Shown: piece by piece, positions 1,231 through 51,301 of the stretch
Position numbering within the stretch: the first letter of the stretch is position 1
Layout: each line of letters starts with the position of its first letter
IMG/VR virus record: IMGVR_UViG_3300029739_000183
From: a virus
Taxonomy: Duplodnaviria; Heunggongvirae; Uroviricota; Caudoviricetes
Length of the DNA stretch: 64,000 nucleotides
Direction: 5' to 3' (one strand)
Position numbers and translations under genes: made by a program
Notes under the pieces: generated by a model
Databases searched by the model: none
Told to the model about the DNA's origin: nothing
What the model saw: the letters and a program-made list of their open reading frames with translations, nothing else

Positions 1231-1276
1231 AAAAAGAATCGGATTCAATCGTGAAACAGAATCCGATTCTTTTTTA
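1231..1276 (+). terminator. Rho-independent terminator after AIM24 gene, built from two copies of the GAATCGGATTC palindrome
   Basis: AAAAAGAATCGGATTC - 12 nt loop - GAATCCGATTCTTTTTT: a 16-bp perfect stem followed by a T-run. Confidence 0.6.
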
Positions 1277-1355
1277 TAGATGTGAAAAAAAATATAAAGA
1301 TAAAAAAACATATTAAGAAAGTAAAAATTTATTCAATCATAGGAGGAAAAACACC

Positions 1356-2078
1356 ATGACAAAAGAAACATTACAGGAAAGAATGACAACACTCTCACGT
1401 TACTTTGCAAGGGATAAATGGAAAGCAGAATCTGGTTTTTTCCAGTATCCAAGGGGAAAAAAGAGAACAGAAGCTGTTGCAGAAGCATTAGAGATCGCTT
1501 TTGACCCATCAGAGTTTGCAATAAAAAAAGAATTAAATCTCCGAGGAGAAGATGTAGTTGGAAGCGTATTCCTTGTGGCTGTCCCAACGGAAGGAATCTT
1601 TGGTGGATATTCTTATCTCAGTCTGACGATCACAGACCATGTGTTTATCGTGACACAGCTTCCGGAAAAATCGGTTGCAGCTTTTGCCTTATTGGAAAAC
1701 AGCGGGGAAAAGCTTGCAGATTCTGTAGAAACATATGAACCGGAACACGAAGAGGATGTATCTATGGAAACTGATACCAAAGAAAAACTGGAAGAAGAAT
1801 CGGAGAAAGAAACATCTGTGGAACCAGAAACAGTAGTTAAAGAAGCAGAACCAGTAAAGGAACTTTTAAAAAAAGAGATGGAAGAAGCTTTAAGAAAAGA
1901 AGATCCAGTAAAAAAAACGGAAGGGGAAAAACAGACAATAGCTGAAAATGAAACAACGGAAGAAGCGGAGATCATGTTAGATGCTTCAAAAGATGAAAAA
2001 ACCTCAGATATTTCTGACGATGAGTTTGACCTTGATAGGGAAATAAGTGAATTAGAAGAGGAATTACCAATGCTGTAA
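1356..2078 (+). CDS. hypothetical protein with acidic E/K/T-rich C-terminal tail
   Basis: ORF with RBS AGGAGGAAAAACACC before the ATG. The C-terminal half is low-complexity acidic. No family recognised. Confidence 0.5.
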   Translation: MTKETLQERMTTLSRYFARDKWKAESGFFQYPRGKKRTEAVAEALEIAFDPSEFAIKKELNLRGEDVVGSVFLVAVPTEGIFGGYSYLSLTITDHVFIVTQLPEKSVAAFALLENSGEKLADSVETYEPEHEEDVSMETDTKEKLEEESEKETSVEPETVVKEAEPVKELLKKEMEEALRKEDPVKKTEGEKQTIAENETTEEAEIMLDASKDEKTSDISDDEFDLDREISELEEELPML

Positions 2079-2185
2079 TTTGTATCAAAAAAAGAGCCGG
2101 ATTCCCGGTTCTTTTTTTTAGGAGAATTATACATATTAAAAACGAAGAAAAAAAGCCTGCTATTCCTAGCAGGCAGTTGTGAATA

Positions 2186-3181
2186 TTATTTATTTTTAAA
2201 TTTTTTTAAAAGGTATTCGCCTTGCTCTTTTAATTTGCTTTCCAAATTTTGATGCAGGCGGATAGTGTTATCAGCAGTTCTTTTTCTTTCTTGTGATCTC
2301 TTTCCACCAAAGTCACGCAAAAAATCCGGATTTGTTGATAATCTACAGATTGCTGAATTAAAAAGACGCTTTACTTCTTTCAAAGGCATGTTTAAGGTTT
2401 CGGCAACTTTTTCGAAAGGCATATTTTTATTTCCATCCAGGTTTACACGTGTGTAATATACTAGCTTTTCTTTGTCAGATAAGATGCTGTTTATCATCTC
2501 TATTAAAATCTCTTCTCGTTCTTTGTTGAGGTAGGATTCTTCCGGACCAGCAATGCTGCTGCGCTGATTAGTCGCATCATCAATATCTGCATAATGAGAC
2601 TGTTCAACATATTTTAGAGTTGATGTAACAATTTTTACACTCATTCCTGTTTTTGTTGCAAGCATTTCAGGAGTATAAGCAATCCTACGCTGTTCGTAAA
2701 ATTCGATTGCTTTGCTGATCTCCCGGTAATTCTGCATATCATAGGAGTTAAGATGATGCCAGGTGAATAAAATAAATTCTCGTATGGCTGCGCGAAAATA
2801 ACGGACAAAGAATGTAGTAGGAGTACCCTTTGTTGCATCATATTCAGTGATTTTATTACAATATACCTCATATAGATCAATTTCCACATCATAAAAATGA
2901 TGACTGGTAGTTGGATAAGGAGCCATCATCTTATGGGCTGTCTTAAGCCCAAATAAACGGATATTTTGCCATCCCCATTCACGCATTTCATCTAACTGTT
3001 TTTTTCTTTCAGGAGGAAGGTTACCTTGGATATAATCCTCCTGATATAAGCATAAAGCTCTTGCTACGAAAGCGTATCTGTTCAAAAAATCTTTTCCGTC
3101 ACCATAATACGGTTCTCTTTGTACTTCTTTGTCTTTTTCAGATGCTGGCTCATTTTTGTAAAGACGTCTTTCTTCTTTCAT
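2186..3181 (-). CDS. sigma-70 family RNA polymerase sigma factor (divergent, long N-terminal region)
   Basis: The C-terminal region-4 HTH (MPFEKVAETLNMPLKEVKRLFNSAICRL) and a region-2-like FFVRYFRAAIREFI segment are present. The start was moved to the ATG at 3181 (MKEERR), which has an AAAAGGAGAT RBS at 7-nt spacing. The ORF-track start at 3253 is TTG with a poor RBS. Confidence 0.6.
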   Translation of the reverse strand: MKEERRLYKNEPASEKDKEVQREPYYGDGKDFLNRYAFVARALCLYQEDYIQGNLPPERKKQLDEMREWGWQNIRLFGLKTAHKMMAPYPTTSHHFYDVEIDLYEVYCNKITEYDATKGTPTTFFVRYFRAAIREFILFTWHHLNSYDMQNYREISKAIEFYEQRRIAYTPEMLATKTGMSVKIVTSTLKYVEQSHYADIDDATNQRSSIAGPEESYLNKEREEILIEMINSILSDKEKLVYYTRVNLDGNKNMPFEKVAETLNMPLKEVKRLFNSAICRLSTNPDFLRDFGGKRSQERKRTADNTIRLHQNLESKLKEQGEYLLKKFKNK

Positions 3182-3589
3182 TTTTAGTATCTCCTTTTCT
3201 TTTTTTTGATCTGCATACGATGCGTTTGCAATTTTTAAGATAGCATAAAACAAATTTCTTCCTTTTTTATAAGAAAACTCTCAAAAAAGGCATAAGAATG
3301 TGTATATAAATATGTATAAAAAGTTTTCTTTTTTTTGTTTTAAAGGATTTTTTAAATACTAAATTGATAGAAAAGTTTCGATCAGTTAATTTTTTCTTAC
3401 AAAAAATTACTTTCTTTTAAAAATGTTATAACTTAGATACCAACTGGAGGGTTAAAACAAGAAAGAAGCGAAGTTTTATAAAAACAGAACTGAGATGTCT
3501 GCAGACTAAAACAAATACATATTATATCAATCCTTCTACTTAGCCTAACGACTGGATTTTGATGAAAAATTAAAAAAGGAGATAGATTA

Positions 3590-4693: not shown

Positions 4694-4784
4694 GGTGCGC
4701 ATTCCCCTTCCTCAACGGAGTAGGTAGGGGTTAGCACTACTATAAGTATCCTTAAAAAGAATTATTGTCAAAGGAGGCAGAGTA

Positions 4785-5909
4785 ATGGCAAACAAAGCTT
4801 TGGTATATGCGATATATCCAAACGAAAAACAGAATATCCAATGCCAAAAGACATTTGGCTGTTGTCGCTTTGTGTATAACCAGATGCTAACCGTACAAAG
4901 GGAACGCCATGAGACTGGAGAGAAGCATTTGTCTAAAACAAATGCGAATACATACTGTAATCAGCATCTTAAAAAAGAGTATCCATTTCTGAAGGAAGTG
5001 GATAAATTCGCCTTAACGAATGCTATTTACCATCTGGCAGATGGATATGACCGATTTTTCAAACACCTTAGTAGATTTCCTAAGTATAAGAGTAAGCACA
5101 AAGCTAAAAAATCTTATACAACGAATATCACAAACGGAAATATTGAGATTGGTGATAGCTCCATTAAACTGCCAAAACTCGGCTGGGTAAAAGCAAAGAT
5201 ACATTGCAGACCGAAGGAAGATTGGAAACTCAAATCTGCAACGATAACACAGAACAGAGATGACAGCTATCAGGTGTCTATCCTATTTGCATATGAGGAA
5301 TCCATTTCCCCTGTAGCCGTTACAGAAGAAAAAACAATCGGACTGGATTACAAATCCGATGGGCTGTATGTCTCAAGTGAAGGAGATACCTGCGGTATGC
5401 CGCACTATTTCCGTCAGTCTGCAGAACGGCTTGCAAAAGCACAGCGGCAGCTAAAACACAAGACCATCGGCAGCAATAATTATAATAAACAACAAAAACG
5501 AGTTGCCCGGATTCACAGACACACCGCAAATCAAAGGAAGGATTTCCTGCAGAAGAAGTCTACCGAGATAGCCAATCAGTATTCTTTTGTCTGCGTGGAA
5601 GACCTTAATATGAAAGCAATGGCAAACCGGGGATTCGGTAATGGAAAAGCCACTTTGGATAACGGATATGGAATGTTCTTAAACATGCTTGATTATAAGT
5701 TAAGAGACAGAGGCGGACAGCTGGTAAAAGTCGGGCGATTCTTTCCATCGAGTCAGTTGTGTAGCCATTGCGGTTTTAAGAACACGCTGGTAAAAAATCT
5801 GTCTATCAGACATTGGGTCTGTCCAAACTGTGGAACAACTGGTATCGACAGGGATGTGAATGCTGCACGAAATATAAAAAAAGAAGGTCTTAGACTGCTC
5901 ACAGCCTAA
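4785..5909 (+). CDS. tnpB: TnpB (IS605 OrfB family RNA-guided endonuclease)
   Basis: The N-terminal OrfB_IS605 domain and the C-terminal RuvC-like and zinc-finger domains (CSHCGFKN..CPNCG) are present, with RBS AAAGGAGG upstream. An IS200-like left-end hairpin lies directly upstream. Confidence 0.85.
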   Translation: MANKALVYAIYPNEKQNIQCQKTFGCCRFVYNQMLTVQRERHETGEKHLSKTNANTYCNQHLKKEYPFLKEVDKFALTNAIYHLADGYDRFFKHLSRFPKYKSKHKAKKSYTTNITNGNIEIGDSSIKLPKLGWVKAKIHCRPKEDWKLKSATITQNRDDSYQVSILFAYEESISPVAVTEEKTIGLDYKSDGLYVSSEGDTCGMPHYFRQSAERLAKAQRQLKHKTIGSNNYNKQQKRVARIHRHTANQRKDFLQKKSTEIANQYSFVCVEDLNMKAMANRGFGNGKATLDNGYGMFLNMLDYKLRDRGGQLVKVGRFFPSSQLCSHCGFKNTLVKNLSIRHWVCPNCGTTGIDRDVNAARNIKKEGLRLLTA

Positions 5910-9388: not shown

Positions 9389-9567
9389 CAAGAAAAACAA
9401 GGATTCCCCTTCCTCAACATCAGTAGGTAGGGGAGGAATTATCTAAAATTCACTAAGCGGCAGTAGTGAGCGGAGATATCGGTATCTCCTACTGCCAAGA
9501 GGTAAGCACCGCTGGGAGGAAACACCGGCATTCAGCCTCCGTTAATACCGGCTGGGGATTAAAACAA
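9388..9567 (+). mobile_element. IS200/IS605-derived MITE (TnpB-less, carries left-end-like and right-end-like hairpins)
   Basis: The left part (GGATTCCCCTTCCTCAACATCAGTAGGTAGGGGA) matches the left end of the tnpB element at 4694. There is an internal long imperfect hairpin (GGCAGTAGTGAGCGGAGATATCGGTATCTCCTACTGCC). The right part (CATTCAGCCTCCGTTAATACCGGCTGGGGATTAAAACAA) recurs at 10297, 20146 and, reverse-complemented, at 63924. Confidence 0.5.
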
Positions 9568-9698: not shown

Positions 9699-10298
9699 AT
9701 GGATAATTATGTATGGATAAGAGGAGAAGTTATTGAATCAGTAGAGTTTAGTCATGAAATCGCAGGTAAAAAATACTGGAGAACAAAAATTTCCTGTGAG
9801 CGTCGTTCTGGACGTAAGGATATCTTGCCAGTTATCCTACGAAAGAAAGCAGATATTTCTGTAGGTGATTTTGTTGAAGTGAAAGGAGTATTTCGATCTA
9901 CGTTTAACCGTAAAGCAGAACCAGGATGGAAGAGACATATTCTTGCATATTCCATTGTACTTGCAGATAAAGAAGATCCAGGAAACTTTGTGAAACTGGA
10001 GGGTACTGTAACAAAAGAGCCGGTATTTAGAACAACACCAAACGGACACGAAATTACAGATTTATCCATCACTACAGGAAAAAATATTAATTATTGTGTC
10101 TGTTGGGAAAAAGTTGCACACGCTGCGAAAAATCTGACAGCAGGAGAAAGAGTATGTATTAAAGGCTTTATCCAGAGCCGTAATTATCGTAAAAGAAAAG
10201 ATGACGGTTTTAACATTATCCCAACGATAGAAATCTCTGTTCTTTTGCTGGAAAACCCCGATGGAATAAAAATCGCACCAATCAGTGCCCCAGTTTAA
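9699..10298 (+). CDS. hypothetical protein, tandem OB-fold-like (SSB/PriB-like) repeats
   Basis: Two internally similar segments (VEVKGVFRSTFNRK and VCIKGFIQSRNYRK) with a beta-rich pattern. It is flanked on both sides by MITE-derived sequence. The assignment is weak. Confidence 0.35.
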   Translation: MDNYVWIRGEVIESVEFSHEIAGKKYWRTKISCERRSGRKDILPVILRKKADISVGDFVEVKGVFRSTFNRKAEPGWKRHILAYSIVLADKEDPGNFVKLEGTVTKEPVFRTTPNGHEITDLSITTGKNINYCVCWEKVAHAAKNLTAGERVCIKGFIQSRNYRKRKDDGFNIIPTIEISVLLLENPDGIKIAPISAPV

Positions 10299-10330
10299 CA
10301 AGAAAAAATACCGGCTGGGGATTAGAAAAT
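10297..10330 (+). repeat. short MITE remnant (AACAAGAAAAA + ATACCGGCTGGGGATTA)
   Basis: Shares the terminal motifs of the 9388 element; internally deleted. Confidence 0.4.
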
Positions 10331-10488: not shown

Positions 10489-13086
10489 ATGAAAAATAAT
10501 AACAAATTACACAGAAAAAGCCACAGAAAGATTAAAATGATTGAAAAAAAAGTACAGGCGATTGAAGCATTAGATGAAAAAATGCAGGCATTAAATGACA
10601 AAGAGCTTCGTGCAAAAACAGAAGAATTTAAAAAACGCTTAGCGGAAGGAGAATCTTTGGATGATATTTTAGTGGAAGCTTTTGCAGTTGTAAGAGAAGC
10701 TGCTGACAGAACTCTTCATTTAAAACATTATCCGGTACAATTAATGGGTGGAATTATCTTGCATCAGGGTTGTATCGCAGAGATGAAGACTGGTGAAGGT
10801 AAGACTTTGGTATCGACACTTCCAGCATATTTAAATGCGCTGGAGGGTAAAGGTGTCCATATAGTTACTGTTAATGACTATCTGGCTAAGCGTGATGCCG
10901 AATGGATGGGTCAAATTCATCGTTTTTTAGGCTTAAGCGTGGGAGTAATCTTAAGTGATGACGATAATGTAAAAAGAAAAGAGGCATATGATTGTGATAT
11001 CACTTATATCACAAATAATGAACTGGGTTTTGATTATCTCCGGGATAATATGGCGATTTATAAAAAGGATCTTGTGCAGCGCGAATTAAACTATGCGATC
11101 ATTGATGAAGTGGACTCTGTGCTGATAGATGAAGCCCGTACTCCGCTTATTATCTCTGGAGATGATGAGATATCTACGGATTTATATAAAACTTGTGAGA
11201 CATTAGCCTGCATGATGGTAAAAGGGACTGCAACAGGTGAACTTTCAAAAGTGGATGCAATCGTTGGAAATAATATTGAAGAAGATGGAGACTTCCTTGT
11301 TAATGAAAAAGATCAACAAATCATGTTAACACAGGATGGGATAAAAAAAGTAGAAGACTTCTTTCATTTAAATAATCTTGCTGATCCAGATAATCTGCAT
11401 ATCCGGCATAATGTTATCCTTGCTTTGCGTGCCCATAATCTTATGCACAAAGATAAAGATTACGTGGTCAAAGAAAATGAAATAATCATTGTTGATGAGT
11501 TTACAGGACGAATTATGCCGGGGCGCCGATATTCTGATGGTCTGCATCAAGCAATCGAAGCGAAAGAACATGTTCCAATCAATCGAGAATCAAAAACGCT
11601 GGCAACGATTACTTTCCAGAATTTTTTCAATAAATACAAAAAGAAAGCTGGCATGACGGGTACTGCTTTTACTGAAAAGAAGGAGTTTGCAGAAATATAT
11701 CACATGGATGTTATCGAAATTCCTACAAATAAACCTGTTGCGCGGGTTGATTATATTGATTCAGTGTATAAAACAAAGCAGGAGAAATATAATGCTGTAG
11801 TAAAAGATGTTTTGGAAACCCATAAAACAGGACAACCGGTGTTAGTAGGCACAGCAAGTATTGATGTTTCAGAAACAATCAGTAAAATCTTAACCGAGAA
11901 AGGAATCAAACATCAAGTACTTAATGCTAAGAAACATGAATCAGAAGCCGAAATCGTTTCTCATGCAGGAGAAAAGGGATCAGTTACTATCGCCACTAAC
12001 ATGGCTGGAAGAGGAACAGATATTAAACTGGGCGATGGAGTAAAAGAACTTGGTGGTTTAAAGATTATCGGTACGGAAAGGCATGAAAGTATCAGGATTG
12101 ATAACCAGCTGCGTGGACGTGCTGGTAGACAAGGTGACCCTGGTGAATCTAAGTTCTATTTATCTCTTGAAGATGACTTGATGCGGTTATTTGGATACGA
12201 TAAACTAAAAAAGATTTATGAAGTCTATAAAATACCAGAAGGAGAAGATCTTCAAGATAAATCCGTTGCAAAGCAGATAAGACGAGCCCAAAAAGATAAA
12301 GAAAATAATAATTTCGGTATTCGTAAAAATTTACTTGATTATGATGCGGTAAATAATCAGCAGAGAGAAATCATCTATGAAGAAAGACGGCGAGTATTAA
12401 ATGGCGAGAGTATGCGAGATCTTATCTATAAGATGATCCGAAAAGTTGTAGAAGATGATGTATTAGAGATTGTTCATAAAACAACTTCAAAATGCATGGA
12501 TATTGACTTACTGGATATGGTATTAGATAGGTTACGCATTGAAGTACCGATTAGACAAGTTACTGTATCTGAAAAAGAATTAAAAGATACAAAAAAACTT
12601 ATTGTCCTGTTGCAGGAAGAAGCTCTTGCTTATTATCATTTAAAAGAAAAAGAATTCAGTTCTGTTGCTGCGATATATGAACAGCAAACAAATGGTATTA
12701 TGACAGAAGAGGATAAAGCGTTATGTAATAATGGTATGAGAGAAGTAGAACGTATAGTTCTTTTAAACATTATTGATAGAAACTGGCCAGATCAAATCGA
12801 TAATATGGATAAACTCAGAGAGAGCATCGGTTTACAGTCTTATGCTCAAAGAGACCCTGTTGCACAGTATAAACTTTTTGGTAGTGAAATGTTTGAAGAA
12901 ATGGCAAAAAAAATTCGTCATGATACGGTTTCGTCTTTGATGCATTTTTCAATCAAACAAAAAATAGAGAGAGAATCTCCAGAAAATAAAACTTATCACA
13001 GAACCGAACAAAAAATTGGACGAAACGAAACATGCCCATGCGGAAGTGGTAAAAAATACAAAAATTGTTGTGGAAAAACAGCATAA
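10489..13086 (+). CDS. secA: preprotein translocase ATPase SecA
   Basis: Full-length SecA with the DEAD motor, preprotein cross-linking domain and a C-terminal zinc-binding tail ([14 protein letters not shown]). RBS AGGAGG upstream. Confidence 0.9.
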
Positions 13087-14615: not shown

Positions 14616-14957
14616 ATGAAAAAGATTGATTTAGAAAAGTATATCGTTTTGTCTGTTGAAAATGAAAAAATACAGATTGTATATAATGCAGAAAACACAG
14701 ATTTATATCTGTGGAAATATGGAAGTTTTTATGTAACAAGAGATCGCTCTCGTATCATTCCAAATTGTCCAGATGAAAATATCTTGTTTTTAAAAAAGGG
14801 AGAAAAAAATATCATTTGCAATAACGATTTTTTTGATAAAGATTATCCATACATGGTATTCCGACAAAAATATCCTGATATCTATATAATAAGTAAAGAT
14901 AAATCGGAAATAAATATGATACGAATGTTATTGAGTATTTTTAAGGAAGAAAAGTAA
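14616..14957 (+). CDS. hypothetical protein
   Basis: ORF with RBS TTAGGAGGAAAAAAG before the ATG. Confidence 0.4.
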   Translation: MKKIDLEKYIVLSVENEKIQIVYNAENTDLYLWKYGSFYVTRDRSRIIPNCPDENILFLKKGEKNIICNNDFFDKDYPYMVFRQKYPDIYIISKDKSEINMIRMLLSIFKEEK

Positions 14958-20145: not shown

Positions 20146-20222
20146 AGAAAAACAAGAATTCTCCTAACTTCTGAAAGCTCCAGCATTCAGCTTCCGTTAA
20201 TACCGGCTGGGGATTAAAACAA
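20146..20222 (+). repeat. internally deleted copy of the IS605-derived MITE
   Basis: AAGAAAAACAAGAATTCTCCT...CAGCATTCAGCTTCCGTTAATACCGGCTGGGGATTAAAACAA has the same termini as 9388..9567. Confidence 0.45.
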
Positions 20223-21549: not shown

Positions 21550-24500
21550 TGAGACCTATTGAACTTAAAATAAAAGGAATTAATAGTTATAGGGAAGAAC
21601 AGGTAATCAATTTTAGCCAACTTACTTCTCAGGGATTTTTTGGTATCTTTGGTCCAACAGGAAGCGGTAAATCAACGATACTTGATGCTATAACATTAGC
21701 TTTATATGCAAAACTACCTCGTGGCAGCAAAAATTTTATTAATATTAATGAATCTTCTGCCAGTGTTTCGTTCCGCTTTTCTATTACAACTACAGAGACG
21801 AAGGAATATTTAGTGGAAAGAAGCTTCCGCTATCCTGGTAAAGATCGCACTTCTACAGCACGAAATACAACAGCAAGATTATCTTTATTATCTGAAACGG
21901 ATATAGATGTACTTGCAGATAAGCCAACGGATGTGACACGGTCTTGTACAGACTTACTTGGTCTGTCGAGTGATGATTTTCTTCGTACTGTTGTCCTACC
22001 GCAAGGACAGTTTAGCGATTTTTTAAAGTTAAAAAATCAGGAAAGAAGAGGCATGTTACAAAGAATATTTCATTTAGAGAGGTACGGTATTGAACTTACA
22101 AGAAAGGTAGCAGCAGCAAGACAAAGAATGGATATAGAGGTTTCTTCTTCCGAAGGAAAATTACAGGCTTATGATGATATATCTAAAGAAATTTTAGATA
22201 ATATATCAAGTGAACTTACAGAGTTGAAAGGAAAATTAGAAAAAGAAGAACTAACTGAAAAAGAATTATCCGCAAAATACCAGCTTTTGAGTGAATTGAA
22301 AGGATTGAAGTCGGAATATGATAACATTTGTCGTAAGGAGACGGAAGTGCTTTCTTCAAAAAAACAGATAGAGGATATTGAATCCTCCCTTGTATCTGTA
22401 AAACAAGCTGAAAGTATTTATCCTTTATATAAAGACTACAAGATAAGGTTAAAAGAAAGTGATCAGAGCCAAAAAGATATTGATTCTCTATTGTCTGATG
22501 AAAAAAAGCTGAAACAGCAGCAGAGTTGTTTAGAGCAAGAGATGGAGGATAACCAGTATCCTAAAGTAATTAAAGAGCTTGCAGAGAAAGAAGATACCTT
22601 AAAACAGTCAACTATCTTAAAAGAAAAGTTAGATGATATCCAAAAAGCAATTCTTGCTGCACAGGAGAGATTATCAAAAAAACAAAAGGAATCGGATTCT
22701 TTAAATGAAGATTCTTTATATTATGAAAAAGAACTCATAGCGAAAAATGAAGAGTTAGATTCTCTCTTGCTGCAACAGCAAAAATGTGTTGTTGATTCAA
22801 GATACCGTCAGTGCATTGAAGATGGTCGATTAGCAGAAAACACTTATCGTACCAAGAGGGGTTATTATACTGAGGCAAAAGGTAAACTTGAGACTTACAA
22901 ACAAAGTGTGTCCACCAAAGAACAACAGTTCGCACAGGAGAGCTTCCTTTTACAGCAGCAGATAAAAAAACTCTTAACTATCTGTGCAGAAGCAGAAAGT
23001 ATTGGAAAACAATTGGAATCAGAAATCAATCAATGTAATGAGAGAATCACTAAGCAAAAAAAAGAATATTTGCTAGAAGAACTTCGTCATTACATAAAAG
23101 ATGGAGAAAAATGCCCTTTATGTGGCAATATCCATCCATCCTATGTTTTCTTTAATAAAGAGGAAGCTCTTGGAGCATCTTTAAAAGATAAAACAAATGA
23201 ATTAAACGCTCTGAAAGAAAAGCAACAGTATGTATCACAGACTGTTCTGTTGCTGCAGGCTTCTTTAAGCGGCAAGGAAAAAGAATTGTCGTCTGATGAG
23301 ATAATAGAAACTAGCTTACCAGCAGATATAGGTACTTGGATAGAGGATAAAAAAACAAATTTGTCCGATATGTTAACTGCTTTTTCCGAGCAATGCTTAA
23401 AATGTACCTCTATGAACGCTTCAATGAAAGAAGTAAAAGATCAGTTAAAAAAAGCAGAAGATGAAGTGACTGAGTTTTATAAGGCTCTAAAGTCTTTGTT
23501 AGACAATATAAAAACGCTTAGAAAAGGGTATGATATTGCTGACTTTACTAAGGAGTTTGATTTGATTGTAGAGAAAGAAAAGAAGCGAGAAGAGTATGAA
23601 GAGCAGATTAAAGCACTGCGATTGAAGATTAGTGAGTTAGAAAAGAGCAAAGAAGATATTAATAAGCGGAAGAATTCACTTTTACAGGAGCTTACAAAGT
23701 GTCAAGCAGAGGAGAAGCAGAGAGTGGATGAAAAAAAATCCCTATGTGAGCAGTTTCCAGACAATTTTAATGAGTCGGAAGATTATCAATCCGCTCTTAA
23801 AACGACAGAATCTGAGAAAAACATATTGACGGAAAAATATGAAAATTGGAAGAAATCTGAACAGGAAGTTCAAGCATCCTTACAAAAAGTATCAGGTTCC
23901 TTGCAAACACAGGAAAACTGTTTAAAATCTTCACAGGAAAAACAGCGTGAAGCATATGCTGTATATTTAAAAGAACTGGAAAGATTAGGACTGTCCCCTG
24001 ATTTTGATGTAGAAAAGAATCTTATGGAAGAGGATAAAAAGCAATCCCTTTTAGAGAAAGTGAACAGCTATAAAGAAAGTTTGAAGGATATAGATACTCA
24101 AAAAACTTATCTTAAAGGAAAAATAAAAGACCAGACTTTTGATGAAAAAGAATGGAAAGATTTAATAGAAGCATTGAGTACTTCTAAAGAGTCTTTGTTA
24201 AATTACCGGAAAAAAATAGCAGTATATGAATCACAAAGTACAGACATCCAAAAGCGCTTAGCACAGAAAGATGAGATTAATGCAAAATATCAGCAGATCA
24301 TCCACAGACGTAGTATTATCCGTGAATTAGAGGAGCTTTTCAAAGGAAATGCTTTCATTGAGTATGTTGCAGAATCTCGTCTTCGATATATTGCAAAGGA
24401 AGCATCGTCTATCTTGTCTCATATTTCTAATGGAAATTATACACTGGATGTAAATGATGCAACAGAGTTTGTTATCAGAGATAACAAAAATGGAGGAGTC

Positions 24501-27477: not shown

Positions 27478-27535
27478 AATCCTATCATAATATTTACTCG
27501 AAAAGGAATCAGAAAATTTCTGGTTCCTTTTTTTT

Positions 27536-27914: not shown

Positions 27915-28075
27915 AATTCATAGTTGATAAGAAAGAAAGTCTAAACAGGGCTTTCTTTTTTTGATTAAAAAGAAAAATTATAAAAATATTCAGATTAATA
28001 AGGTAAAAGAAATTTTTCAAAATAAGGAGGATAAAAATATGCAGACAAGAAAAGGTAGACATGAAATATCTTGGT

Positions 28076-28092
28076 GGAATCGAATTCTTTTT
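28076..28092 (+). repeat. palindromic element GGAATCGAATTCTTTTT
   Basis: Copy 4 of the palindrome family. It lies inside a possible 23-aa mini-ORF (28039..28110, RBS AAGGAGG) and 39 nt upstream of the ATG at 28131. Confidence 0.5.
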
Positions 28093-28130
28093 CATAGAAT
28101 AGATCAGTAAAATAAGAAGGAGAAAAAGAT

Positions 28131-29024
28131 ATGAGCAAGATATTAAATAACCCAAAACAGATTGCCGGGTTAACTCACAGCCGGGGAAAAGGAAAAGCGA
28201 TTGTTTTTGCCATCCAAAATGAGTTAGATATTGCCAAATGTGAAAATAAAAATGAACCGTTAAATTTACATAGTAAATTCAGCCGTTTCCCTGTCGTAAT
28301 TATTAATGAAAATAACCGCCCTGCAACAGCTAATATTCCTGTTAATGAAATGTTGAATATCATTATGAAATCAAAAACATTACATGATCTGGAAATAAAA
28401 CAGGCATGCACGCCACATAATGAGGAATTTTCTTCTCCTGCTTACACCGTTCGATTTACCTCCGGTGATATGCGAGGAATGACACCAGCAGAAGTTCTTT
28501 TAAAAGATCCGGAAAATTCGAAAAAATTAAATGAACAATATACGTTTTTGAAAGAAAATCTGCCGAAATATCCTAAAAATAAAAAGCAGTTAGATGCAAT
28601 CACCGATGCTGCTCGGCTTTACAAAGAAGGTAAACTGCAGAAATCAGAAAGGACTGTTATTCCATCTTATCTTTTGTATGAATCTGGATTCCGCCCTCTT
28701 ACAAGAAGAGAAAAAAAAGATGGATTGACATTTGTTTACCAGATAAAACTGACTTGGAATTTCGGAGAGAGTAATCCAGTACGGTTAGAAATTGAAAATT
28801 TTTATGCACCTGTTATACAGACAGAACAAGGTCTTTTAAACGTACAAGCAAAAGAGAAAAAAAATAGTACGGCGAATGAATTCCATTTTTCTTTAGATGA
28901 ATGGAATTGGCTGATACATCTGATTGAATCGAATATCCGTATTTTTGAAGCAATTGCTGGACCAAAAGCGCTTAAAATTGCAACAAATATGGCGGAAGAA
29001 AAAAAAGAAAAGTTTGCACTATAA
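28131..29024 (+). CDS. hypothetical protein (297 aa)
   Basis: ORF with RBS AAGAAGGAGAAAAAG before the ATG. No recognisable family. Confidence 0.45.
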   Translation: MSKILNNPKQIAGLTHSRGKGKAIVFAIQNELDIAKCENKNEPLNLHSKFSRFPVVIINENNRPATANIPVNEMLNIIMKSKTLHDLEIKQACTPHNEEFSSPAYTVRFTSGDMRGMTPAEVLLKDPENSKKLNEQYTFLKENLPKYPKNKKQLDAITDAARLYKEGKLQKSERTVIPSYLLYESGFRPLTRREKKDGLTFVYQIKLTWNFGESNPVRLEIENFYAPVIQTEQGLLNVQAKEKKNSTANEFHFSLDEWNWLIHLIESNIRIFEAIAGPKALKIATNMAEEKKEKFAL

Positions 29025-33156: not shown

Positions 33157-34416
33157 ATGAATGAACAAAAAAAAGTCAAAAAGAAAATACTGTTCACGGC
33201 TATAGTCCTGTTTGTAATACAGGCTTTTGCTGGTATCCCTACACCAGGAGTAAACATCGATTATTTTAAAGCGTTGCTGGAACAGAATACAACTGCGGGG
33301 TTATTTAATGTGTTATCAGGCAACGGATTGAGTAACTTATCAGTTACGATGCTATCCATAACACCATATATCACTGCATCTATTATCTTACAGTTGCTCA
33401 CAATCGTTATCCGGCCACTGGAAAAATTACAGCGGAATGGTGAGGTTGGACAGCAGACTTTTAAAAAATACACGATCATATTAGGAGTTATCCTTGCATT
33501 TATGGAGTCATTTGGTTTTGCTTACGGTTTTGGACAAAAAGGATTGTTGCTATCTTTTAAATGGTACTGGGTAGCCCTTGTGACCATCATCTGGGCAGGA
33601 GCAGCATTGCTCTTAATGTTAGCAGGAGAATTTATTGAAAAAAAAGGCTTTGGAAATGGTATTTCTTTGATTCTTTTATTCAATATCCTGTCTTCTTATC
33701 CATCAGATGCGATAACGGTTTATAATCGATTTTTACAAGGATATGGCATAGATAAAAAAGTATTCCATGGTATCGCTATTTGTATTATTCTGGTTGTATT
33801 ATTTGCCTTTACAGTATATATCCAATTCATTGAAAAAAGAATTCCTGTAGAATACGCTTTCAAAACGATGGGAACAGTAAAGAGTGAACAAAGTTTTTTC
33901 CCAGTAAAACTTTGTCCGGGTACGGTAGTACCGGTAATCTTTTCCAGTTCTTTAATGGCAATCCCTTCACTTGTTGCTTCTTTTATGGGAAAGAATTTTT
34001 GGATTGCCGATATGCTAAACTCTTCCAAGTGGTTTGATCCGGAGCATCTTTCGTATTCCGTTGGGGCAGTCATCTATATTGCCTTGATTTTTATATTTAC
34101 TTATTATTATACAGAGATGATTATCAATCCAATAGAAATTGCTAATAATTTTAAAAAGACTGGAGGTACGATCCCTAATGTCCGCCCAGGAGAAGATACT
34201 GTAAAATATCTTACATCAGAGATTCGGAAGGTAATCACTATCGGAGCCGGGGCATTATCCTTGATCGCATTAGTACCTTGTGTTTTGGCAGGATTATTTG
34301 ATATATCAAAATTGTCCTTTGCCGGCACCTCTGTTATCATCATTGTTGGTGTTATCGTAGAAACATTAGACCGTTTTTATGCAGAAGTCAAAGCGAAAAA
34401 TATGAAACTGACCTAA
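33157..34416 (+). CDS. SecY paralog (SecY2-like, 419 aa) outside the ribosomal-protein operon
   Basis: Contains the SecY signature ITPYITASIILQLLT and 10 predicted TM segments. RBS AAAAGGAGAAA upstream. It is not in the rplO-secY-adk context. Confidence 0.7.
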   Translation: MNEQKKVKKKILFTAIVLFVIQAFAGIPTPGVNIDYFKALLEQNTTAGLFNVLSGNGLSNLSVTMLSITPYITASIILQLLTIVIRPLEKLQRNGEVGQQTFKKYTIILGVILAFMESFGFAYGFGQKGLLLSFKWYWVALVTIIWAGAALLLMLAGEFIEKKGFGNGISLILLFNILSSYPSDAITVYNRFLQGYGIDKKVFHGIAICIILVVLFAFTVYIQFIEKRIPVEYAFKTMGTVKSEQSFFPVKLCPGTVVPVIFSSSLMAIPSLVASFMGKNFWIADMLNSSKWFDPEHLSYSVGAVIYIALIFIFTYYYTEMIINPIEIANNFKKTGGTIPNVRPGEDTVKYLTSEIRKVITIGAGALSLIALVPCVLAGLFDISKLSFAGTSVIIIVGVIVETLDRFYAEVKAKNMKLT

Positions 34417-34432: not shown

Positions 34433-34591
34433 ATGAAAGGTATAAAAAAGAATTTGAAAGAATTGCATTATCCGAAAATGAATACGGTTGCAAAGGTAAC
34501 AGTAATCGTTTTGTCAGTATCTATTATTCTGGCAAGTCTTATCGCAGCTGAAACAGCAACAATCCAAAAGATATGTAGTCTTATCCTGTAA
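34433..34591 (+). CDS. SecE-like small membrane protein (52 aa)
   Basis: AAGGGAGAAAAA RBS upstream. It has a basic N-terminus followed by a single TM helix (VAKVTVIVLSVSIILASLIAA), matching the Firmicutes SecE layout. It lies immediately downstream of the secY paralog. Confidence 0.35.
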   Translation: MKGIKKNLKELHYPKMNTVAKVTVIVLSVSIILASLIAAETATIQKICSLIL

Positions 34592-36285: not shown

Positions 36286-36307
36286 AAAAAAGAATCGGAT
36301 TCTTTTT
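36286..36307 (+). repeat. palindromic element AAAAAGAATCGGATTCTTTTT (perfect)
   Basis: Copy 5 of the palindrome family; 80 nt upstream of the ATG at 36387. Confidence 0.6.
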
Positions 36308-36386
36308 ATACATCACATATAAAATCAGATTGAATGAAATTGTTCATGTTAATAGCATCAAAAGTTCAAACAAGGAGGGAAATGAA

Positions 36387-36650
36387 ATGAAAAAACAGAA
36401 TGTCAAGCTGACTCCGGAAGCCTTATTATTGACAGCAATCTTAGGAGTTCCTACCGGACAGAAAAAAAATGATGGAAGCATGGAACGATTTTATCCTTCT
36501 AGCGGACCAATTGGTTCCAGTGTAGACCTTGTCGATCAATGTGTCCATATATTAAAAACAGGATCAGTTCCTGTAAAAAAAACGAAACTGAAAATGAAAG
36601 ATTTTGAGGAAAAAGAAGACTCATCCGGCATACAAATGAAGATGTTTTAA
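36387..36650 (+). CDS. hypothetical protein (87 aa)
   Basis: CAAGGAGGGAAATGAAATG context. Followed by a strong terminator. Confidence 0.35.
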   Translation: MKKQNVKLTPEALLLTAILGVPTGQKKNDGSMERFYPSSGPIGSSVDLVDQCVHILKTGSVPVKKTKLKMKDFEEKEDSSGIQMKMF

Positions 36651-36688
36651 AAAAAGATGTCCCCAGAAATTTGGGGACATTTTTTTGC
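36649..36688 (+). terminator. Rho-independent terminator
   Basis: AAAAAAGATGTCCCCAGAAATTTGGGGACATTTTTTTG hairpin. Confidence 0.6.
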
Positions 36689-36767
36689 ACATTCTTGTTA
36701 AAAAGATAAAAAAGAAGTTTCCTTCATATTATCTTTGTAATATTTTTCAAATAAAGGAGGATAAAAA

Positions 36768-37841
36768 ATGATAATCGTTAAAACAGAGGATATCTCTTCT
36801 GCTATCAAACAGGCAAAAGTTATGATTAGACCAGGGTCATTGATTTTGGAAAACAGTCTACGTTTTTCTGCAAAAAAAGATAAACTCTATATCCGAACTA
36901 ACTCTGGCGGAATCAAATTTATTACGAGAATTCCTTGTACATGTGACAGAGAAGTTGATTTTATGGTGAATATCCATCTTATTTCATCTACACTTCCGTT
37001 TTTCCTTTCAAAGTCTCTGGAAATCCTGCCTGATGCTAAGAAGGAAACAGTCTTATTTAAAAGCAAAGAATTACAAGTAGAAATCAAAACAATCCCACTA
37101 GCTGTATGGGCATCTTATAAAATCAGGTCTGTATGGAATATTGATATCTCTGTAGGAGCTGAAACGCTTGTTTCGCTTGTGAACAGAACAGCATATGCGT
37201 CTGATACAAAAGACAGTACAGACAATCGAGCAATGTTGAACTTTTCAGTCACATCCGATGAAAAAGGATTGAAAGTTACTGGTCTTGATTTTTATCGTTC
37301 TGCTACCTGTGCAACAGGAAAGATCAACGACCTTGTAGAAAATTCTTTTACAATTCCTACAAAGACGCTAAAAGTGATTCTGCCTTACTTAAAAGGTACA
37401 GTGCATTTAAAAAAATATGGTAATGAATACGCAATAAGTACAGAAACTATGGCACTTTATGGTCATACTCCGGCTATTGACTACTATGATATCTCGACGC
37501 TTTTGGAAAAATGTCCAGAAGATTCTGTGATGATTGATAAAGATTATTTTTTACGTTACTGCGAAGTTGCAGCAATTGTAAATAAAATGAAAATTTTCAT
37601 CAACATACAAGAAGAGTACCTGGAGGTTTCAGCTTCTGGGAATGGTGGAAAAGTAGAAAACAAAATTGAAACAAAAAGCAGAGTAAAAGCTACGTATTGC
37701 GTAAATCCGGTATTTATCATGGATGTGTTAAAAAAATGTCCTGAGAAAAAAATTAAGATGTATTATAGCAGATATAGTACAAAGCCGTTGTTTTTCAAGG
37801 GAGATGATCATATTGACATGGTGATGCCAATACAAAATTGA
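36768..37841 (+). CDS. DNA polymerase III beta sliding clamp (DnaN)-like protein, divergent
   Basis: The ~357 aa length, the N-terminal MxIxxxxxxLxxAxxxV pattern, the three-domain beta-rich periodicity and the C-terminal ..MVMPIQN tail resemble DnaN. RBS AAAGGAGGAT upstream. It lies next to a Gp157-like gene. Confidence 0.45.
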   Translation: MIIVKTEDISSAIKQAKVMIRPGSLILENSLRFSAKKDKLYIRTNSGGIKFITRIPCTCDREVDFMVNIHLISSTLPFFLSKSLEILPDAKKETVLFKSKELQVEIKTIPLAVWASYKIRSVWNIDISVGAETLVSLVNRTAYASDTKDSTDNRAMLNFSVTSDEKGLKVTGLDFYRSATCATGKINDLVENSFTIPTKTLKVILPYLKGTVHLKKYGNEYAISTETMALYGHTPAIDYYDISTLLEKCPEDSVMIDKDYFLRYCEVAAIVNKMKIFINIQEEYLEVSASGNGGKVENKIETKSRVKATYCVNPVFIMDVLKKCPEKKIKMYYSRYSTKPLFFKGDDHIDMVMPIQN

Positions 37842-40551: not shown

Positions 40552-41621
40552 TCTTTTTCCTCCATGATCTGTAATATCGTATTCACCGTTTTATCAAGTT
40601 CTCCATCATTTGGGATAATATAATCACAAAAGTTTTTATTCTTTTGCTCTTCTTCCAGCCCTGCAATACGGCTGACAGTTATATCCAATGGTAGCTTTCT
40701 TTGTAATATGCTGCGGATGCAGTCTTCTTTTGGTCGGTCTATATATAATAAGGAAGTGTCATCTGGATAACGTTTTTTAATGCGTAATGCACCATTGATA
40801 TCCAGTATGGACAGTAGTTGTTTGCCGGTACGAAACACTTCCAGCTCATCCCAGGCTGTTCCATAATAAGCCCCTTTGTATCTTGTTACCTCTGCAAAAA
40901 ATCCCTCTTTCTCTTTCTTAAAGAATTCTTCTTCGGTGATAAAGTGATAGGACTCTCCTTTATGTCGTGGGAGACGGGTTGTATAACTTATCGTTTGACA
41001 TACAGTAGATTCTTTTTTCAGTAATTCCGATACCAGACTACTTTTTCCCGATGCTGATGGTCCAACCAGTATAAAGATATTTTTCCGTAAAGGTCTGTTG
41101 TGCTGGTCTAACAAAGAAATTATTTTTAAAAATTCATCATAAGATGATATTTTAGGGATACCTGTTACCTTTTCATTCCATGGGCGTTTAAATAAAAATG
41201 GATATCGCACAGGGGAAGAAAGAACATTATGCAGAGCATCATCTAATAATACATCTGCTGTCAGAAGATCTTTTCTTTGTCCAATCAGTATATTCGCTGG
41301 GTCAATGGAGGGGAACTTTTGAATGATCTCATTTACCCTTACTCCGGCACAATCAGGGTGTATACTTGTTGCAATAAACACTTCGTGGTTTTTTGTAAGT
41401 TGTTTTACAAAATTCTGCGCCCCTTTTTTTAATGGTATCTTTTCCATAAAAGCAGGATCTTTAAAATATTTTATCCTTTCATCGAGCAATGTTCCGGTTT
41501 TCCCCCAGTCATGGATGTCAGATAAAAAGAATCGAGTTCTTTTTTCTTTGTTTAATCTGTCTACAGCTGCTTGATTACAGTCATTTAATACATCATCATA
41601 ATCAATGATTATCTTTAGCAT
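40548..41621 (-). CDS. fusion protein: N-terminal 5'(3')-deoxyribonucleotidase (NT5C/HAD) domain + C-terminal guanylate kinase domain
   Basis: The N-terminus has the HAD DxDx(V/T) motif (IIDYDDVLND) and a later LLDDALHN motif. The C-terminus has a P-loop (LVGPSASGKSSL), SYTTRLPRHKGESYHFITEEEF, YKGAYYGT and ILDINGALRIKK, which are typical of Gmk. RBS AAGGAGGA lies 6 nt before the ATG. Confidence 0.6.
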   Translation of the reverse strand: MLKIIIDYDDVLNDCNQAAVDRLNKEKRTRFFLSDIHDWGKTGTLLDERIKYFKDPAFMEKIPLKKGAQNFVKQLTKNHEVFIATSIHPDCAGVRVNEIIQKFPSIDPANILIGQRKDLLTADVLLDDALHNVLSSPVRYPFLFKRPWNEKVTGIPKISSYDEFLKIISLLDQHNRPLRKNIFILVGPSASGKSSLVSELLKKESTVCQTISYTTRLPRHKGESYHFITEEEFFKKEKEGFFAEVTRYKGAYYGTAWDELEVFRTGKQLLSILDINGALRIKKRYPDDTSLLYIDRPKEDCIRSILQRKLPLDITVSRIAGLEEEQKNKNFCDYIIPNDGELDKTVNTILQIMEEKE

Positions 41622-46699: not shown

Positions 46700-46721
46700 A
46701 AAAAAGAATTCGATTCTTTTT
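46700..46721 (+). repeat. palindromic element AAAAAGAATTCGATTCTTTTT
   Basis: Copy 6 of the palindrome family; 64 nt upstream of the dnaE ATG. It is preceded by a separate terminator hairpin (GCATCATTTATGG..CCATAATGATGTC). Confidence 0.6.
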
Positions 46722-46784
46722 CTTACAAAAATAAAAAGAAAAAATCATGTTATATATTGACAAGAGGAAGGAGAGGATTAAATT

Positions 46785-49700: not shown

Positions 49701-50621
49701 AATATTCTTCCGGTTGATATTAATCATTCCTGGTTTGATTTTTCGGTTGAAGATGGAGCGATCCGATTCGGATATAAAGGGATTAAGGGAATAGGAGACC
49801 AAAATCTGTTGAAAGATAGCACGAAAGGATATCAGTCTTTTAAAGATTTTATATTTCAAGATATGATAAAGGAAACAGATGGACGGATAACCCAAATGAA
49901 AAGTTCTATAATGGAAAATCTTATCAATGCAGGTGCATTCGATAAGCTTTATAAGAACAGGGAACGTCTTTTAGAACATTATGCTATCCTTTCCGATATG
50001 ATAAAAAATGCAGTTTCTTTGTCATCACTGACCTGCGCTATAAAAAATTATGAAATGCCGGATATCCTTCCTGCGGATAAACAATACAATATGCAGGAAG
50101 AAAGTAAGCTGCTCAACTCTATCGTAAGCATCCGTCCACTAGATGGGTATATGGATGAAAAGGCTTATGGGTGTATCCCTTTTTCTGAATTGGCAGAAGG
50201 GAATGTGAAAGTAATGGGATTTATTGTAGAACAGAAAAAAAAATACAGCAAAAAGGGTAATCTTATGCAGGTGTATTCAATCGAAGGTTTTTCAGGCAAA
50301 CTATCGGCTGTCCAAATGGGGGACGCACTTAGTTATGTAGGGAAAGTCGTGATAATAGCTGGATCATACCAAAAGGATACATTGTTTGTGCGCTCGATAA
50401 GTTGTTTATCAAAAGGGTTGACAACAGGAACCTATATCATAAAAACGCTAGAGGATAATTATAGGATAAAAGAAATATATAAAAATGATACTGGCGATAA
50501 AAATCATCTTTTGCACATCATAAATTATGCAACAAAAGATGGAGGTCTAGCAGAGATACCATCTACAGGAAATTTACGCGTAAGCGAACAAACATTCAAA
50601 AAAATAAAAGGGTGGGAATAA
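46785..50621 (+). CDS. dnaE: DNA polymerase III alpha subunit, DnaE-type (PHP + pol core), with K-rich insertion
   Basis: N-terminal PHP domain (HCHTMYSLFDS..TDHG), core palm motifs (GVGPGRGSASGSLVCY, MPDIDTD), fingers and an OB region. RBS GAAGGAGAGG upstream. A terminator hairpin overlaps the stop codon. Confidence 0.85.
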   Translation: MVKNGFLHCHTMYSLFDSAITPNDLVKRAKELGAKNITLTDHGTLLGIEPFMDAGKEYGINTIPGVELYLANREHFILFAKNYTGYQAISKTMRNANYETSKRNKKGEEGSQKSYACVPDDVLSQLKGNKDIIATTACMQGPIAKILLYNFRILRKIKKLKISKEKIEKAYLNYKKATEDIEIFLEKKKELKKEETNHKKNTSSQQLKTIQKLKKEIESGQVSLFYEQQIRTYTDKKNFYDYCLKRLKDIKKETDAINVKIKALRKIKKNLKTKHDRYVELASRIKEMEQHLIKEEELYQKAKELTMHYAEIFPCFYVELQYHGIEEEAYIMPQLASIAKELGIPVIAGNDAHMVDSTEDSLLARQTMRFNYFERHQKLGEADKELYLKTDEELINTLEKILSPETVRQAMANLSVLSECHVTMQTKEHYPKVKDGPSFSELLEEARVEKIKQGKWNEIYEARLRHEMKVIKEMGYVDYHLVVRDFCNAARQLGTIPKNEIPYCPDDFNEAVQWVKEKGFKTGVGVGPGRGSASGSLVCYLLGITNIDPVRYNLLFERFLNPERVSMPDIDTDVKTSLRPLIIRYLKWRYGTRAVCSIATENTYKAKGALKAAGRDRASELCIHLPKKEYSAAVSDYMNKYVYPITDAMDDNETLNDRNVVDGTEEAVIWRRAKLIENKLFATGLHAGGVVISDNDDINEYIPLAWNTENQVWAAQCDMVKLEKRGMLKMDLLGLSTLDIISDCLQLIEKRTGKVINPDNIPFEPVVFREIYAKGRTNSVFQFESPGMKKMLKDFQPESIEDVILLVAAYRPGPMQFIPDIIEVKKGRKKASYVVPELKDILDSTYGYPVYQEQLMSIFHVCAGFSLGKADIVRRYMSKKKVEKFLEFKPEFVTGLMNTGATEEGAIELWDSLTDFAKYAFNRSHAASYALVSYQTAWLKYHYPAEFCCAMFNNKEQKKFTPIIDDCKEFHVNILPVDINHSWFDFSVEDGAIRFGYKGIKGIGDQNLLKDSTKGYQSFKDFIFQDMIKETDGRITQMKSSIMENLINAGAFDKLYKNRERLLEHYAILSDMIKNAVSLSSLTCAIKNYEMPDILPADKQYNMQEESKLLNSIVSIRPLDGYMDEKAYGCIPFSELAEGNVKVMGFIVEQKKKYSKKGNLMQVYSIEGFSGKLSAVQMGDALSYVGKVVIIAGSYQKDTLFVRSISCLSKGLTTGTYIIKTLEDNYRIKEIYKNDTGDKNHLLHIINYATKDGGLAEIPSTGNLRVSEQTFKKIKGWE

Positions 50622-50635
50622 TCCCACCTTTTTTA
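50606..50635. terminator. bidirectional terminator hairpin
   Basis: AAAAGGGTGGGAATAATCCCACCTTTTTT hairpin. Confidence 0.55.
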
Positions 50636-50641
50636 GTTCCC

Positions 50642-51301
50642 TCATTTCTTGGAAAAAGAATCGGATTCTTTTTCCATAAAACTATAATAACAATAATATA
50701 ATTGGCTGTGTTCATTATCTTTGCTTATCTCGTAAAGAGCATCCAATATATTGATGCCCAGTTGCTCAGCAGGCACTTTTAAACGATATAAAGCTAAAAA
50801 ATTTTTCCCTTCAATAGTTGTAAAAAATCGGTAGGCTTCTTCTATGGTATAAAAAACTTTATAATGCTCAATCAGATAGCGGAAACAATGACAGAATCGC
50901 TGAAATCCAGATGTTCCACTAAAATATTCCCTTGGAAACTGTTCTTCATCTTCCAGCACAGACCGATAGATGCGCTCCGCCAAAATCCTTTGGCTTAGGT
51001 GCATTTTCGCCGGATAGAGCAGAGAAAGAATATATTCTATGGATCCTTTTTTTACCTCTGTCGGATAATCAATATATAAAATAATCCGCTCTAATTTTAA
51101 TTGTCTGATCATGTATTCATCGAAACGTTTTACTGTAGTATCTACAGTCCAGTTCAATAATTTTTCAATCGCATATCTGATCAATTGAATGGCTACCTTT
51201 TCGTTTGCCCCTCCTGGCTCAGAACCATAAAAATAATAGCTGCTTAGAGCAGGAGTACGCCCAATAAGATAGTCTTCATAAGCAATGTATAAACTATTCA
51301 T
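50642..51301 (-). CDS. hypothetical protein (219 aa), divergent from helicase gene
   Basis: AAAGGAAGG RBS lies 8 nt before the ATG. The last ~8 codons are formed by palindrome copy 7 (50654-50674). Confidence 0.45.
   Translation of the reverse strand: MNSLYIAYEDYLIGRTPALSSYYFYGSEPGGANEKVAIQLIRYAIEKLLNWTVDTTVKRFDEYMIRQLKLERIILYIDYPTEVKKGSIEYILSLLYPAKMHLSQRILAERIYRSVLEDEEQFPREYFSGTSGFQRFCHCFRYLIEHYKVFYTIEEAYRFFTTIEGKNFLALYRLKVPAEQLGINILDALYEISKDNEHSQLYYCYYSFMEKESDSFSKK

Follow-up and report, generated by a model that had tools for sequence, protein, structure and literature searches.

What is a short palindrome doing in one gap after another of a mobile element, and which protein, if any, reads it? 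The question was raised by a stretch of 64,000 nucleotides filed as a virus of the Caudoviricetes (IMG/VR record IMGVR_UViG_3300029739_000183; hereafter the window), in which an earlier note had listed seven copies of a 21-bp palindrome upstream of start codons, including that of dnaE, and had suggested either an operator for a dimeric regulator or a repetitive extragenic palindrome (REP)-like or recombination site used to assemble cassettes. The window belongs to a large integrative conjugative element (ICE) from a human-gut Firmicute, and the recurrent palindrome in it is real. We propose, at a probability of roughly 0.38, that the palindrome may serve a dimeric global regulator encoded by the ICE as its operator or loading site; for this regulator, a protein of the ParB/Noc/KorB fold would be the best candidate.

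The palindrome, AAAAAGAATC-S-GATTCTTTTT, has nine copies in the window. A search with the 21-mer pattern at up to three mismatches returned those at 1254, 22684, 27536, 36287, 41524, 46701 and 50653, where chance would give 0.02, and the core AGAATCNGATTCT also matches at 1235 and 26077. Near-identical contigs allowed the window to be extended by 9.6 kb to the left and by 9.8 kb to the right, and the resulting 83.4-kb composite held 13 sites within two mismatches of AAAGAATCSGATTCTTT, where an order-2 Markov model predicts 0.14; the copies beyond the window lie near the integrase gene, 5′ of a 602-aa gene, inside a Big_2 gene and 5′ of an adhesin gene. Six of the nine window sites are intergenic (p = 7e-5), and four copies lie inside open reading frames (ORFs), three of these encoding Glu-Ser-Asp/Asn-Ser. 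No other palindrome recurs in the 83 kb, the remaining perfect ones being single terminator-like stems, and the half-sites taken alone are not enriched. The coordinates given earlier were right to within 1 nt and the listed copies were found again, except that the one at 28076 is only degenerate; the ORF copies at 22684 and 41524 had been missed. An exact-pattern scan of IMG/VR returned no match to the 21-mer and 24 single matches to the 17-mer, and a scan of species-representative genomes returned at least 120 matches, those listed being all scattered singles except for a contig of an Anaerostipes metagenome-assembled genome (MAG) that is identical to the window; such scans carry no information on the host chromosome. 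A literature search for the palindrome sequence returned unrelated primers only.

We then compared 24 copies, 21 of them distinct, from four lineages of the element. As read from this alignment, the conserved unit is a double-stranded core, GAAT-YSR-ATTC, with A/T-tract flanks. G6, A8, T9, T14, T15 and C16 are invariant in the 21 distinct copies, the central three bases vary (CGG, CCG, CGA, TCG), and the flanking A- or T-tracts are often swapped or absent on one side. No compensatory change was found, as none of the nine possible stem pairs is altered on both sides in the 21 distinct copies; the outer four stem pairs are unpaired in 7-11 of the 21, and overall pairing (80.3%) is no higher than in column shuffles (83.0%). 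The palindrome is a sequence motif, not a structure, and most likely not a terminator.

The terminator explanation deserves a hearing, as the A5-stem-T5 architecture and the usual position of the copies after gene ends recall bidirectional intrinsic terminators, which have the same A-tract, inverted repeat and T-tract between genes, and the copies could act as weak bidirectional terminators or insulators reinforcing termination between transcription units. We consider this improbable, because the stem is too weak, sequence is conserved instead of pairing, flank swaps break the stem with no compensation, and copies stand between divergent promoters. As RNA, single copies have folding energies of −1 to −4.9 kcal/mol, which shuffled sequences equal, and their U-tract pairs with the A-tract instead of staying free, so they have neither the stable G+C-rich hairpin nor the free U-tract of an intrinsic terminator, and the earlier description of them as poor terminators stands. 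Strong, ordinary terminators of about −17 to −20 kcal/mol are already present just 5′ of the copies at 27536, 46701 and 50653 (4-20 nt away), and the palindrome is kept where real terminators are replaced; a terminator scan of 25800-28300 found none. Hairpins of terminator strength are limited to the double copy at 1231-1274, whose stem had been pointed out before and does form, over 17 bp followed by T6 (−21.4 kcal/mol, z = −5.4), which gives it the stable hairpin and free U-tract that single copies lack, and, less so, to 50653 (−12.7 kcal/mol); these two could terminate.

The placement of the copies is best described with respect to a second motif. A promoter-like heptamer, CAT(A/G)TT(A/G) (CATRTTR), is highly conserved; it has no clear −35 element and mostly follows a run rich in A. 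About 22-24 genes or operons of the window have the heptamer 30-50 nt ahead of their start codon (1309, 7413, 10458, 14239 on the minus strand, 20294, 26122, 29116, 30513, 33127, 36725, 42538, 51377, 61028 and others). It is also found in the distant relatives L161 and L162, whose DnaE identity is only 47-49%, and in L179, and its reader may be the sigma-like protein that the ICE itself encodes on the minus strand (2186-3253); a sigma-70 promoter scan around the palindromes returned fewer matches than in shuffles. Most intergenic palindromes lie 5′ of CATRTTR, at 30-59 nt (mostly 35-48) from palindrome centre to motif, and the distance shows no helical phasing. Four of the six intergenic window sites are 28-60 nt from a CATRTTR, compared with 9.6% of intergenic positions (p = 1e-3), and only about 6 of some 24 CATRTTR promoters carry the palindrome. 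At dnaE the motif is a CATGTTA on the plus strand (46746-46752), 39 nt before the ATG, and further palindrome-adjacent motifs are at 1309, 26122, 26052 (minus), 36345 and 36257 (minus). As to the fixed spacing to start codons reported earlier, five copies (1254, 26072, 27536, 36287 and 46701) do end 63-85 nt before the next plus-strand ATG, but the spacing is indirect, through a CATATTA that lies 30-50 nt before the ATG, and the distance from palindrome to CATATTA is variable (30-59 nt) and differs by 23 nt between two lineages at dnaE.

Three copies, at 26083 and 36297 in the window and at 3495 in L039, lie between diverging CATRTTR motifs and genes, a setting in which a terminator would serve no purpose. 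At the promoter facing int, the palindrome ends 8-9 nt before CATATTA, and in L039 two copies flank the CATATTA before the parB-like gene; copies overlapping a core promoter in this manner weakly suggest that the effect is repression.

Taken one at a time, the intergenic copies occur in several settings. The double copy at 1231-1274 follows directly on the stop codon of an AIM24-like gene, has two cores with centres at 1241 and 1264, 23 bp apart, and stands 45 nt 5′ of the CATATTA at 1309. The copy at 26073-26093 separates divergent genes (24885-25922, minus; 26169-26621, plus), with a CATGTTA 31 nt to its left on the minus strand and a CATATTA 39 nt to its right on the plus strand; its left flank is a T-tract, not an A-tract, and it folds at only −1 kcal/mol. 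The copy GAAAAGAATCGAATTCTTTTT at 27536-27556 begins 4 nt past a strong terminator, 5′ of a 90-aa gene at 27642. An exact copy at 36287-36307, the second in the window to lie between divergent genes, has a CATATTG 40 nt to its left (minus strand, toward RecJ, whose true start is at about 36214) and a CATGTTA 48 nt to its right, before an 87-aa gene at 36387. The copy at 46701-46721 lies between a strong terminator and the dnaE promoter, abuts TTCTTACA and is 35 nt from the CATGTTA, with the dnaE ATG at 46785. The degenerate copy at 28072-28092, 34 nt before an ATG at 28131, keeps the core GAATCGAATTC and the T-run and has no A-tract; with four mismatches to the 17-mer, its membership is uncertain. 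It is contained in a 20-codon basic mini-ORF, MQTRKGRHEISWWNRILFHRI (28040-28102), which is preceded by a strong ribosome-binding site of its own, stops 28 nt short of the following gene and may be a leader peptide.

The remaining copies overlap coding sequence. A second exact copy, at 50653-50673, lies between the convergent dnaE and DUF4046-like genes with no promoter nearby; its stem is lengthened by GG/CC, and, as the earlier note had seen, it is built into the last codons of a minus-strand gene, where it encodes the non-conserved C-terminal tail KESDSFSKK followed by the stop. The copy AAAAGGAATCGGATTCTTTAA at 22684-22704 is inside the SbcC ORF, where it encodes KESDS, and an identical copy is found in the SbcC-like gene of L177. 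The copy at 41524-41544 has two mismatches and lies inside an NT5C/guanylate-kinase ORF (minus strand, residues KEKRTRFFL), whose orthologue in L039 has no palindrome at the equivalent position.

Comparison across lineages of the ICE showed where the palindrome is kept. L040 and L169, with 80% DnaE identity, carry copies both 5′ and 3′ of dnaE, and L039 (65%) carries five, partly at other intergenic positions. L177 has an orthologue of the 27536 copy (at 17052), the copy in SbcC and a degenerate one (15594) at the position orthologous to 26072. In L040/L169, the palindrome 5′ of dnaE is kept with a different terminator sequence beside it and 23 nt inserted between the palindrome and promoter blocks, and the one 3′ of dnaE is kept inside an otherwise non-conserved protein tail. 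L161 (DnaE identity 49%), L162 (47%) and L179 share the gene order and CATATTA and have no copy, nor any other recurrent palindrome. The palindrome is thus kept in one group of lineages while its neighbours change, and is therefore lineage-specific and selected for its sequence. At the recD2-parB operon of L161, a single AAAAAGGAACCCGGTTCCTTTTT (14878-14900) separates the promoter-like motif from the ribosome-binding site, the same layout with a different core; it could be the equivalent site of that lineage or only an attenuator hairpin.

A dispersed, lineage-restricted and mostly extragenic repeat, one copy of which is read into a variable protein tail, might also be a selfish REP-like or miniature inverted-repeat transposable element (MITE)-like palindrome that spread through the intergenic DNA of the ICE with no regulatory role. 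The ICE does carry IS605-type TnpB elements with end-repeats, and a 1.2-kb indel between L005 and L006 ends exactly at the left edge of one copy, the sole such case among the strain-level indels examined. We nevertheless regard this origin as unlikely. The unit is only 21 bp, has no terminal repeats or target duplications and is not part of the TnpB element ends, and the copies in ORFs arise with no indels. Orthologous positions are kept in lineages with 65-80% DnaE identity, and the copies are enriched beside promoters, including divergent ones. No RAYT, IS200 TnpA or Y1 transposase is among the Pfam hits on record, and the collection scans gave no multi-copy matches elsewhere among the matches listed. 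REP sequences, bacterial interspersed mosaic elements and MITEs are recognised by conserved pairing, an associated RAYT/IS200-type transposase and variable presence at orthologous loci; here, compensatory changes are lacking and copies are retained at orthologous loci, so that the one indel boundary is the sole hint of such an origin. The Anaerostipes MAG contig CAAEIR010000225.1 starts exactly at the palindrome at 36287, and strain-level variation may tend to break at palindromes.

Core sites of recombinases have inverted arms for binding and, between them, a central region of 6-8 bp (tyrosine recombinases) or 2 bp (serine recombinases). The arms of the palindrome are separated by 1 bp, or at most by three variable bp, in all 24 copies, which we judge incompatible with a recombination site for cassette exchange; the one indel boundary described above speaks for such a site, and the other examined indels end away from copies. 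The idea of a single-stranded DNA hairpin acting in conjugative transfer, for priming or as an ssi-like site for the ICE primase and DnaE, draws on the presence in the ICE of genes for a primase-like protein, DnaE, a DnaN-like protein and SSB, but the pairing is not conserved, a 9-bp A/T stem is judged too weak and a palindrome holds no strand information. Either role seems to us very unlikely. With arms only 1-3 bp apart, positions kept between orthologues and a single indel ending at a copy, the cassette-building proposal of the earlier note is not supported, and its other proposal, a possible operator for a dimeric regulator, is the best supported.

Some protein probably binds the palindrome. 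Conjugative elements on which a global regulator has scattered operators or loading sites are already known, namely the IncP-1 plasmid RK2 with KorB-OB and ICEclc with BisD-bisS. The KorB operator core is TTTAGCSGCTAAA, with about a dozen copies on RK2. Like the ICE studied here, RK2 is a conjugative element that encodes a protein with a ParB fold and a helix-turn-helix (HTH) and carries dispersed short odd palindromes with a central S base, which adjoin promoters or are variably spaced from them and have replication and transfer genes nearby; unlike RK2, the ICE is integrative, has a Gram-positive host, an unrelated site sequence and no KorA-like or ParA (IncC)-like partner that we could find. 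KorB is a sliding clamp of the ParB family that depends on cytidine triphosphate (CTP), and its operators are found 5′ of promoters at 4-10 bp or at 45 to >1000 bp (PMC11790492). BisD of ICEclc, from Pseudomonas, is an orphan ParB-like clamp encoded by the ICE itself; its site is an 11-n-11 palindrome whose copies can be intragenic, and it controls 11 ICE promoters (PMC12409273), activating transfer-competence promoters at a distance. BisD differs in having just two bisS sites, an additional activator domain and the partner BisC, whereas the present element has about 13 sites, most of them intergenic, and its candidate protein gives no indication of an activator domain. Chromosomal ParB-parS and Noc-NBS likewise combine the same fold with dispersed palindromic sites, some of them intragenic; they differ from the present system in that we found no match to the parS or NBS consensus and no ParA, and in that the sites here are promoter-proximal and on a mobile element. 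The published KorB and BisD precedents make a ParB-clamp model plausible. Under such a model, about 13 copies spread over at least 83 kb, mostly in short non-transcribed gaps between a terminator and the next CATATTA-type ICE promoter, would be loading sites at which the ParB-like protein (53514-54602) would silence or otherwise control the adjacent ICE promoters, which would be those of replication and repair genes, the promoter facing int and those of adhesin genes.

The candidate binder is a 362-aa protein of the ParB/Noc/KorB fold encoded on the plus strand at 53514-54602, with the motif GNRRYRA (GxxRxxA) and the HTH region KGQMSISDAARMTKLPQ; a core-only match, GAATCTGATTC, lies within its gene at 54531-54541. 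The ParB N-terminal (CTPase) domain with GxxRxxA is present (Pfam ParB_N, E 1.8e-9), and phmmer and hmmsearch reached Noc and ParB structures at 1e-10 to 1e-13, aligning SGNRRYRA to GERRWRA. A ParB-type HTH after the N domain was found through an AlphaFold2 model (10-residue block-mean pLDDT 67-94 over residues 21-240) and its structural matches, in which Foldseek aligned 209-231 columns, spanning both domains, to Noc 7nfu, ParB 6t1f and KorB 8qa9 with target-normalised TM-scores of 0.58-0.67; the E-value to Noc 7nfu was 3e-8, and identity to KorB in the structural alignment was 16-17%. Among the ORFs scanned and the Pfam hits, recognisable sequence-specific DNA-binding domains are limited to the sigma-like protein at 2186-3253, the TnpB HTH and the ParB_N protein, and no canonical parS or Noc site is present in the 83 kb. 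The recognition helix S-D-A-A-R is common to the four palindrome-bearing lineages, and the palindrome-free lineages with a readable ParB have ENAGK (L179) and SRAGR (L161) and no core match at all.

Several observations weigh against this assignment. The HTH alignment to Noc is weak at the sequence level (i-E about 0.3), and no ParA/CbiA-type or KorA-like partner is among the Pfam hits over about 83 kb, an absence that is unproven for the ICE as a whole, which extends further. The link between helix and palindrome is confounded by phylogeny, since the palindrome-bearing lineages are also the closest relatives, and distant relatives with a ParB-like gene have no equivalent recurrent palindrome in about 20 kb each. 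In the window, the promoter of the parB-like gene lacks a palindrome; L039 alone has the double site there, and L177 does not. Conservation is highest at the centre of the palindrome (half-sites 6 bp apart), an uncommon pattern for many HTH dimers, and the ICE encodes many small proteins with no detectable family, so that an unrecognised repressor could bind. The link between the ParB-like protein and the palindrome is circumstantial, and its identification as the binder is tentative, at less than even odds. That an orphan ParB-fold CTP clamp acting at about 13 palindromes beside ICE-specific CATATTA promoters would globally gate replication, integration and adhesin genes, in the manner of KorB or BisD, is more doubtful still.

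These points also bear on the strongest alternative, that the palindrome is a classical operator for a different small dimeric repressor or activator, of the ICE or its host, which belongs to no recognisable family and has nothing to do with the ParB-like protein. We rank an unrecognised regulator just below the ParB-like protein as the binder, as nearly as likely. It shares all of the evidence in cis (enrichment, promoter placement, conservation across lineages, no covariation), a palindrome at about 6 of some 24 CATRTTR promoters looks like a regulon, and most ICE ORFs near palindromes have no match in Pfam, NCBIfam or PHROGs, so that regulators may hide there. Scans of the small ORFs beside the palindromes against the same three databases found no regulator and no candidate protein was identified; the copies in ORFs or between convergent genes (22684, 41524 and 50653) are unexpected for a simple promoter operator, and the distance to the promoter is variable and unphased.

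The assignment of the window to an ICE and not to a phage was made because the integrase adjoins chromosomal genes, coupling proteins of a type IV secretion system (T4SS) are present and megablast against a phage collection gave no match; on these grounds, we rejected a phage origin. Human-gut metagenome contigs of up to 602 kb carry proteins identical to those of the window and have, about 6 kb to its left, a tyrosine integrase followed by ordinary chromosomal genes, and to its right a flotillin gene and a gene for a 2,546-aa adhesin. The ICE is present in hundreds of human-gut assemblies. The Anaerostipes-labelled MAG contig mentioned above (L142; 1.4 kb), from a species-representative genome, is identical to window positions 36286-37662, and from MAG binning the host genus is probably Anaerostipes. 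A plasmid collection gave no DNA match to the window and only remote ParB matches, and an Rfam search of the whole window matched no family. The window has a G+C content of about 35% and is 90% coding, with almost all genes on the plus strand and strong Shine-Dalgarno sequences. The replication and repair proteins of the ICE are divergent forms of DnaE, a DnaN-like protein, two SSBs, RecJ, SbcCD, RecD2, a DnaG-zinc-ribbon protein and an NAD-ligase; similarly divergent are SecA, SecY and a SecE-like protein, a type I methylase with its S subunit, an NA37 nucleoid protein, the sigma-like protein, the ParB_N protein, DUF3801 and two VirD4/TraG coupling proteins.

Other features of the ICE were noted along the way. 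The ribosome-binding regions share TTTCAAA(N1-4)AAGGAGG (26150-26165, 27620-27634, 28020-28033, 36364-36378 and 36748-36762), so that many ICE genes start translation from regions of unusual uniformity. SecA (10489-13086), SecY (33157-34416) and the SecE-like protein (34433-34591), together with the CLIPPER-repeat adhesin of 2,546 aa, which is encoded a few kb outside the window (L005, 15778 onward), give the appearance of a mobile element that brings its own accessory Sec system to export a giant surface protein. IS605-family TnpB genes (4785-5909 in the window; L008 16168-17799; L009 14343-14747) are polymorphic between near-identical copies of the ICE, being full-length, truncated or inserted elsewhere, and TnpB has therefore been active recently. 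A repeat of at least 77 nt, beginning TTTTAATCCCCAGCCGGTATTAACGGAGGCTGAATGCCGG, forms a long hairpin, has no Rfam match and occurs in copies that are 95-99% identical (9491-9567, about 10283-10330 and 20180-20222, all on the minus strand, and 63924-64000 on the plus strand, continuing in L005 11560-11720); one of its flanks resembles the sequence just 5′ of the TnpB gene (4701-4730), and it probably represents ends or omega-RNA-like remnants of an IS605/TnpB element. We also considered the palindrome as a pair of HinfI/CcrM-type GANTC half-sites and dropped the idea, as GANTC words are neither depleted nor enriched. GATC, unlike GANTC, is strongly under-represented across the window (189 observed, about 320 expected from sub-words), as would be expected if restriction systems specific for GATC exert pressure within the host range.

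For an element that is almost wholly unannotated, the palindrome and CATATTA together provide a ready map of transcription-unit boundaries. If a ParB-fold clamp does act at the palindromes, the circuit would be the first KorB/BisD-like system in Gram-positive conjugative elements, and the palindrome and its binder would give a handle for switching the ICE on or off. It would also extend gene control by CTP clamps, as in KorB and BisD, from the Proteobacteria to the Firmicutes.

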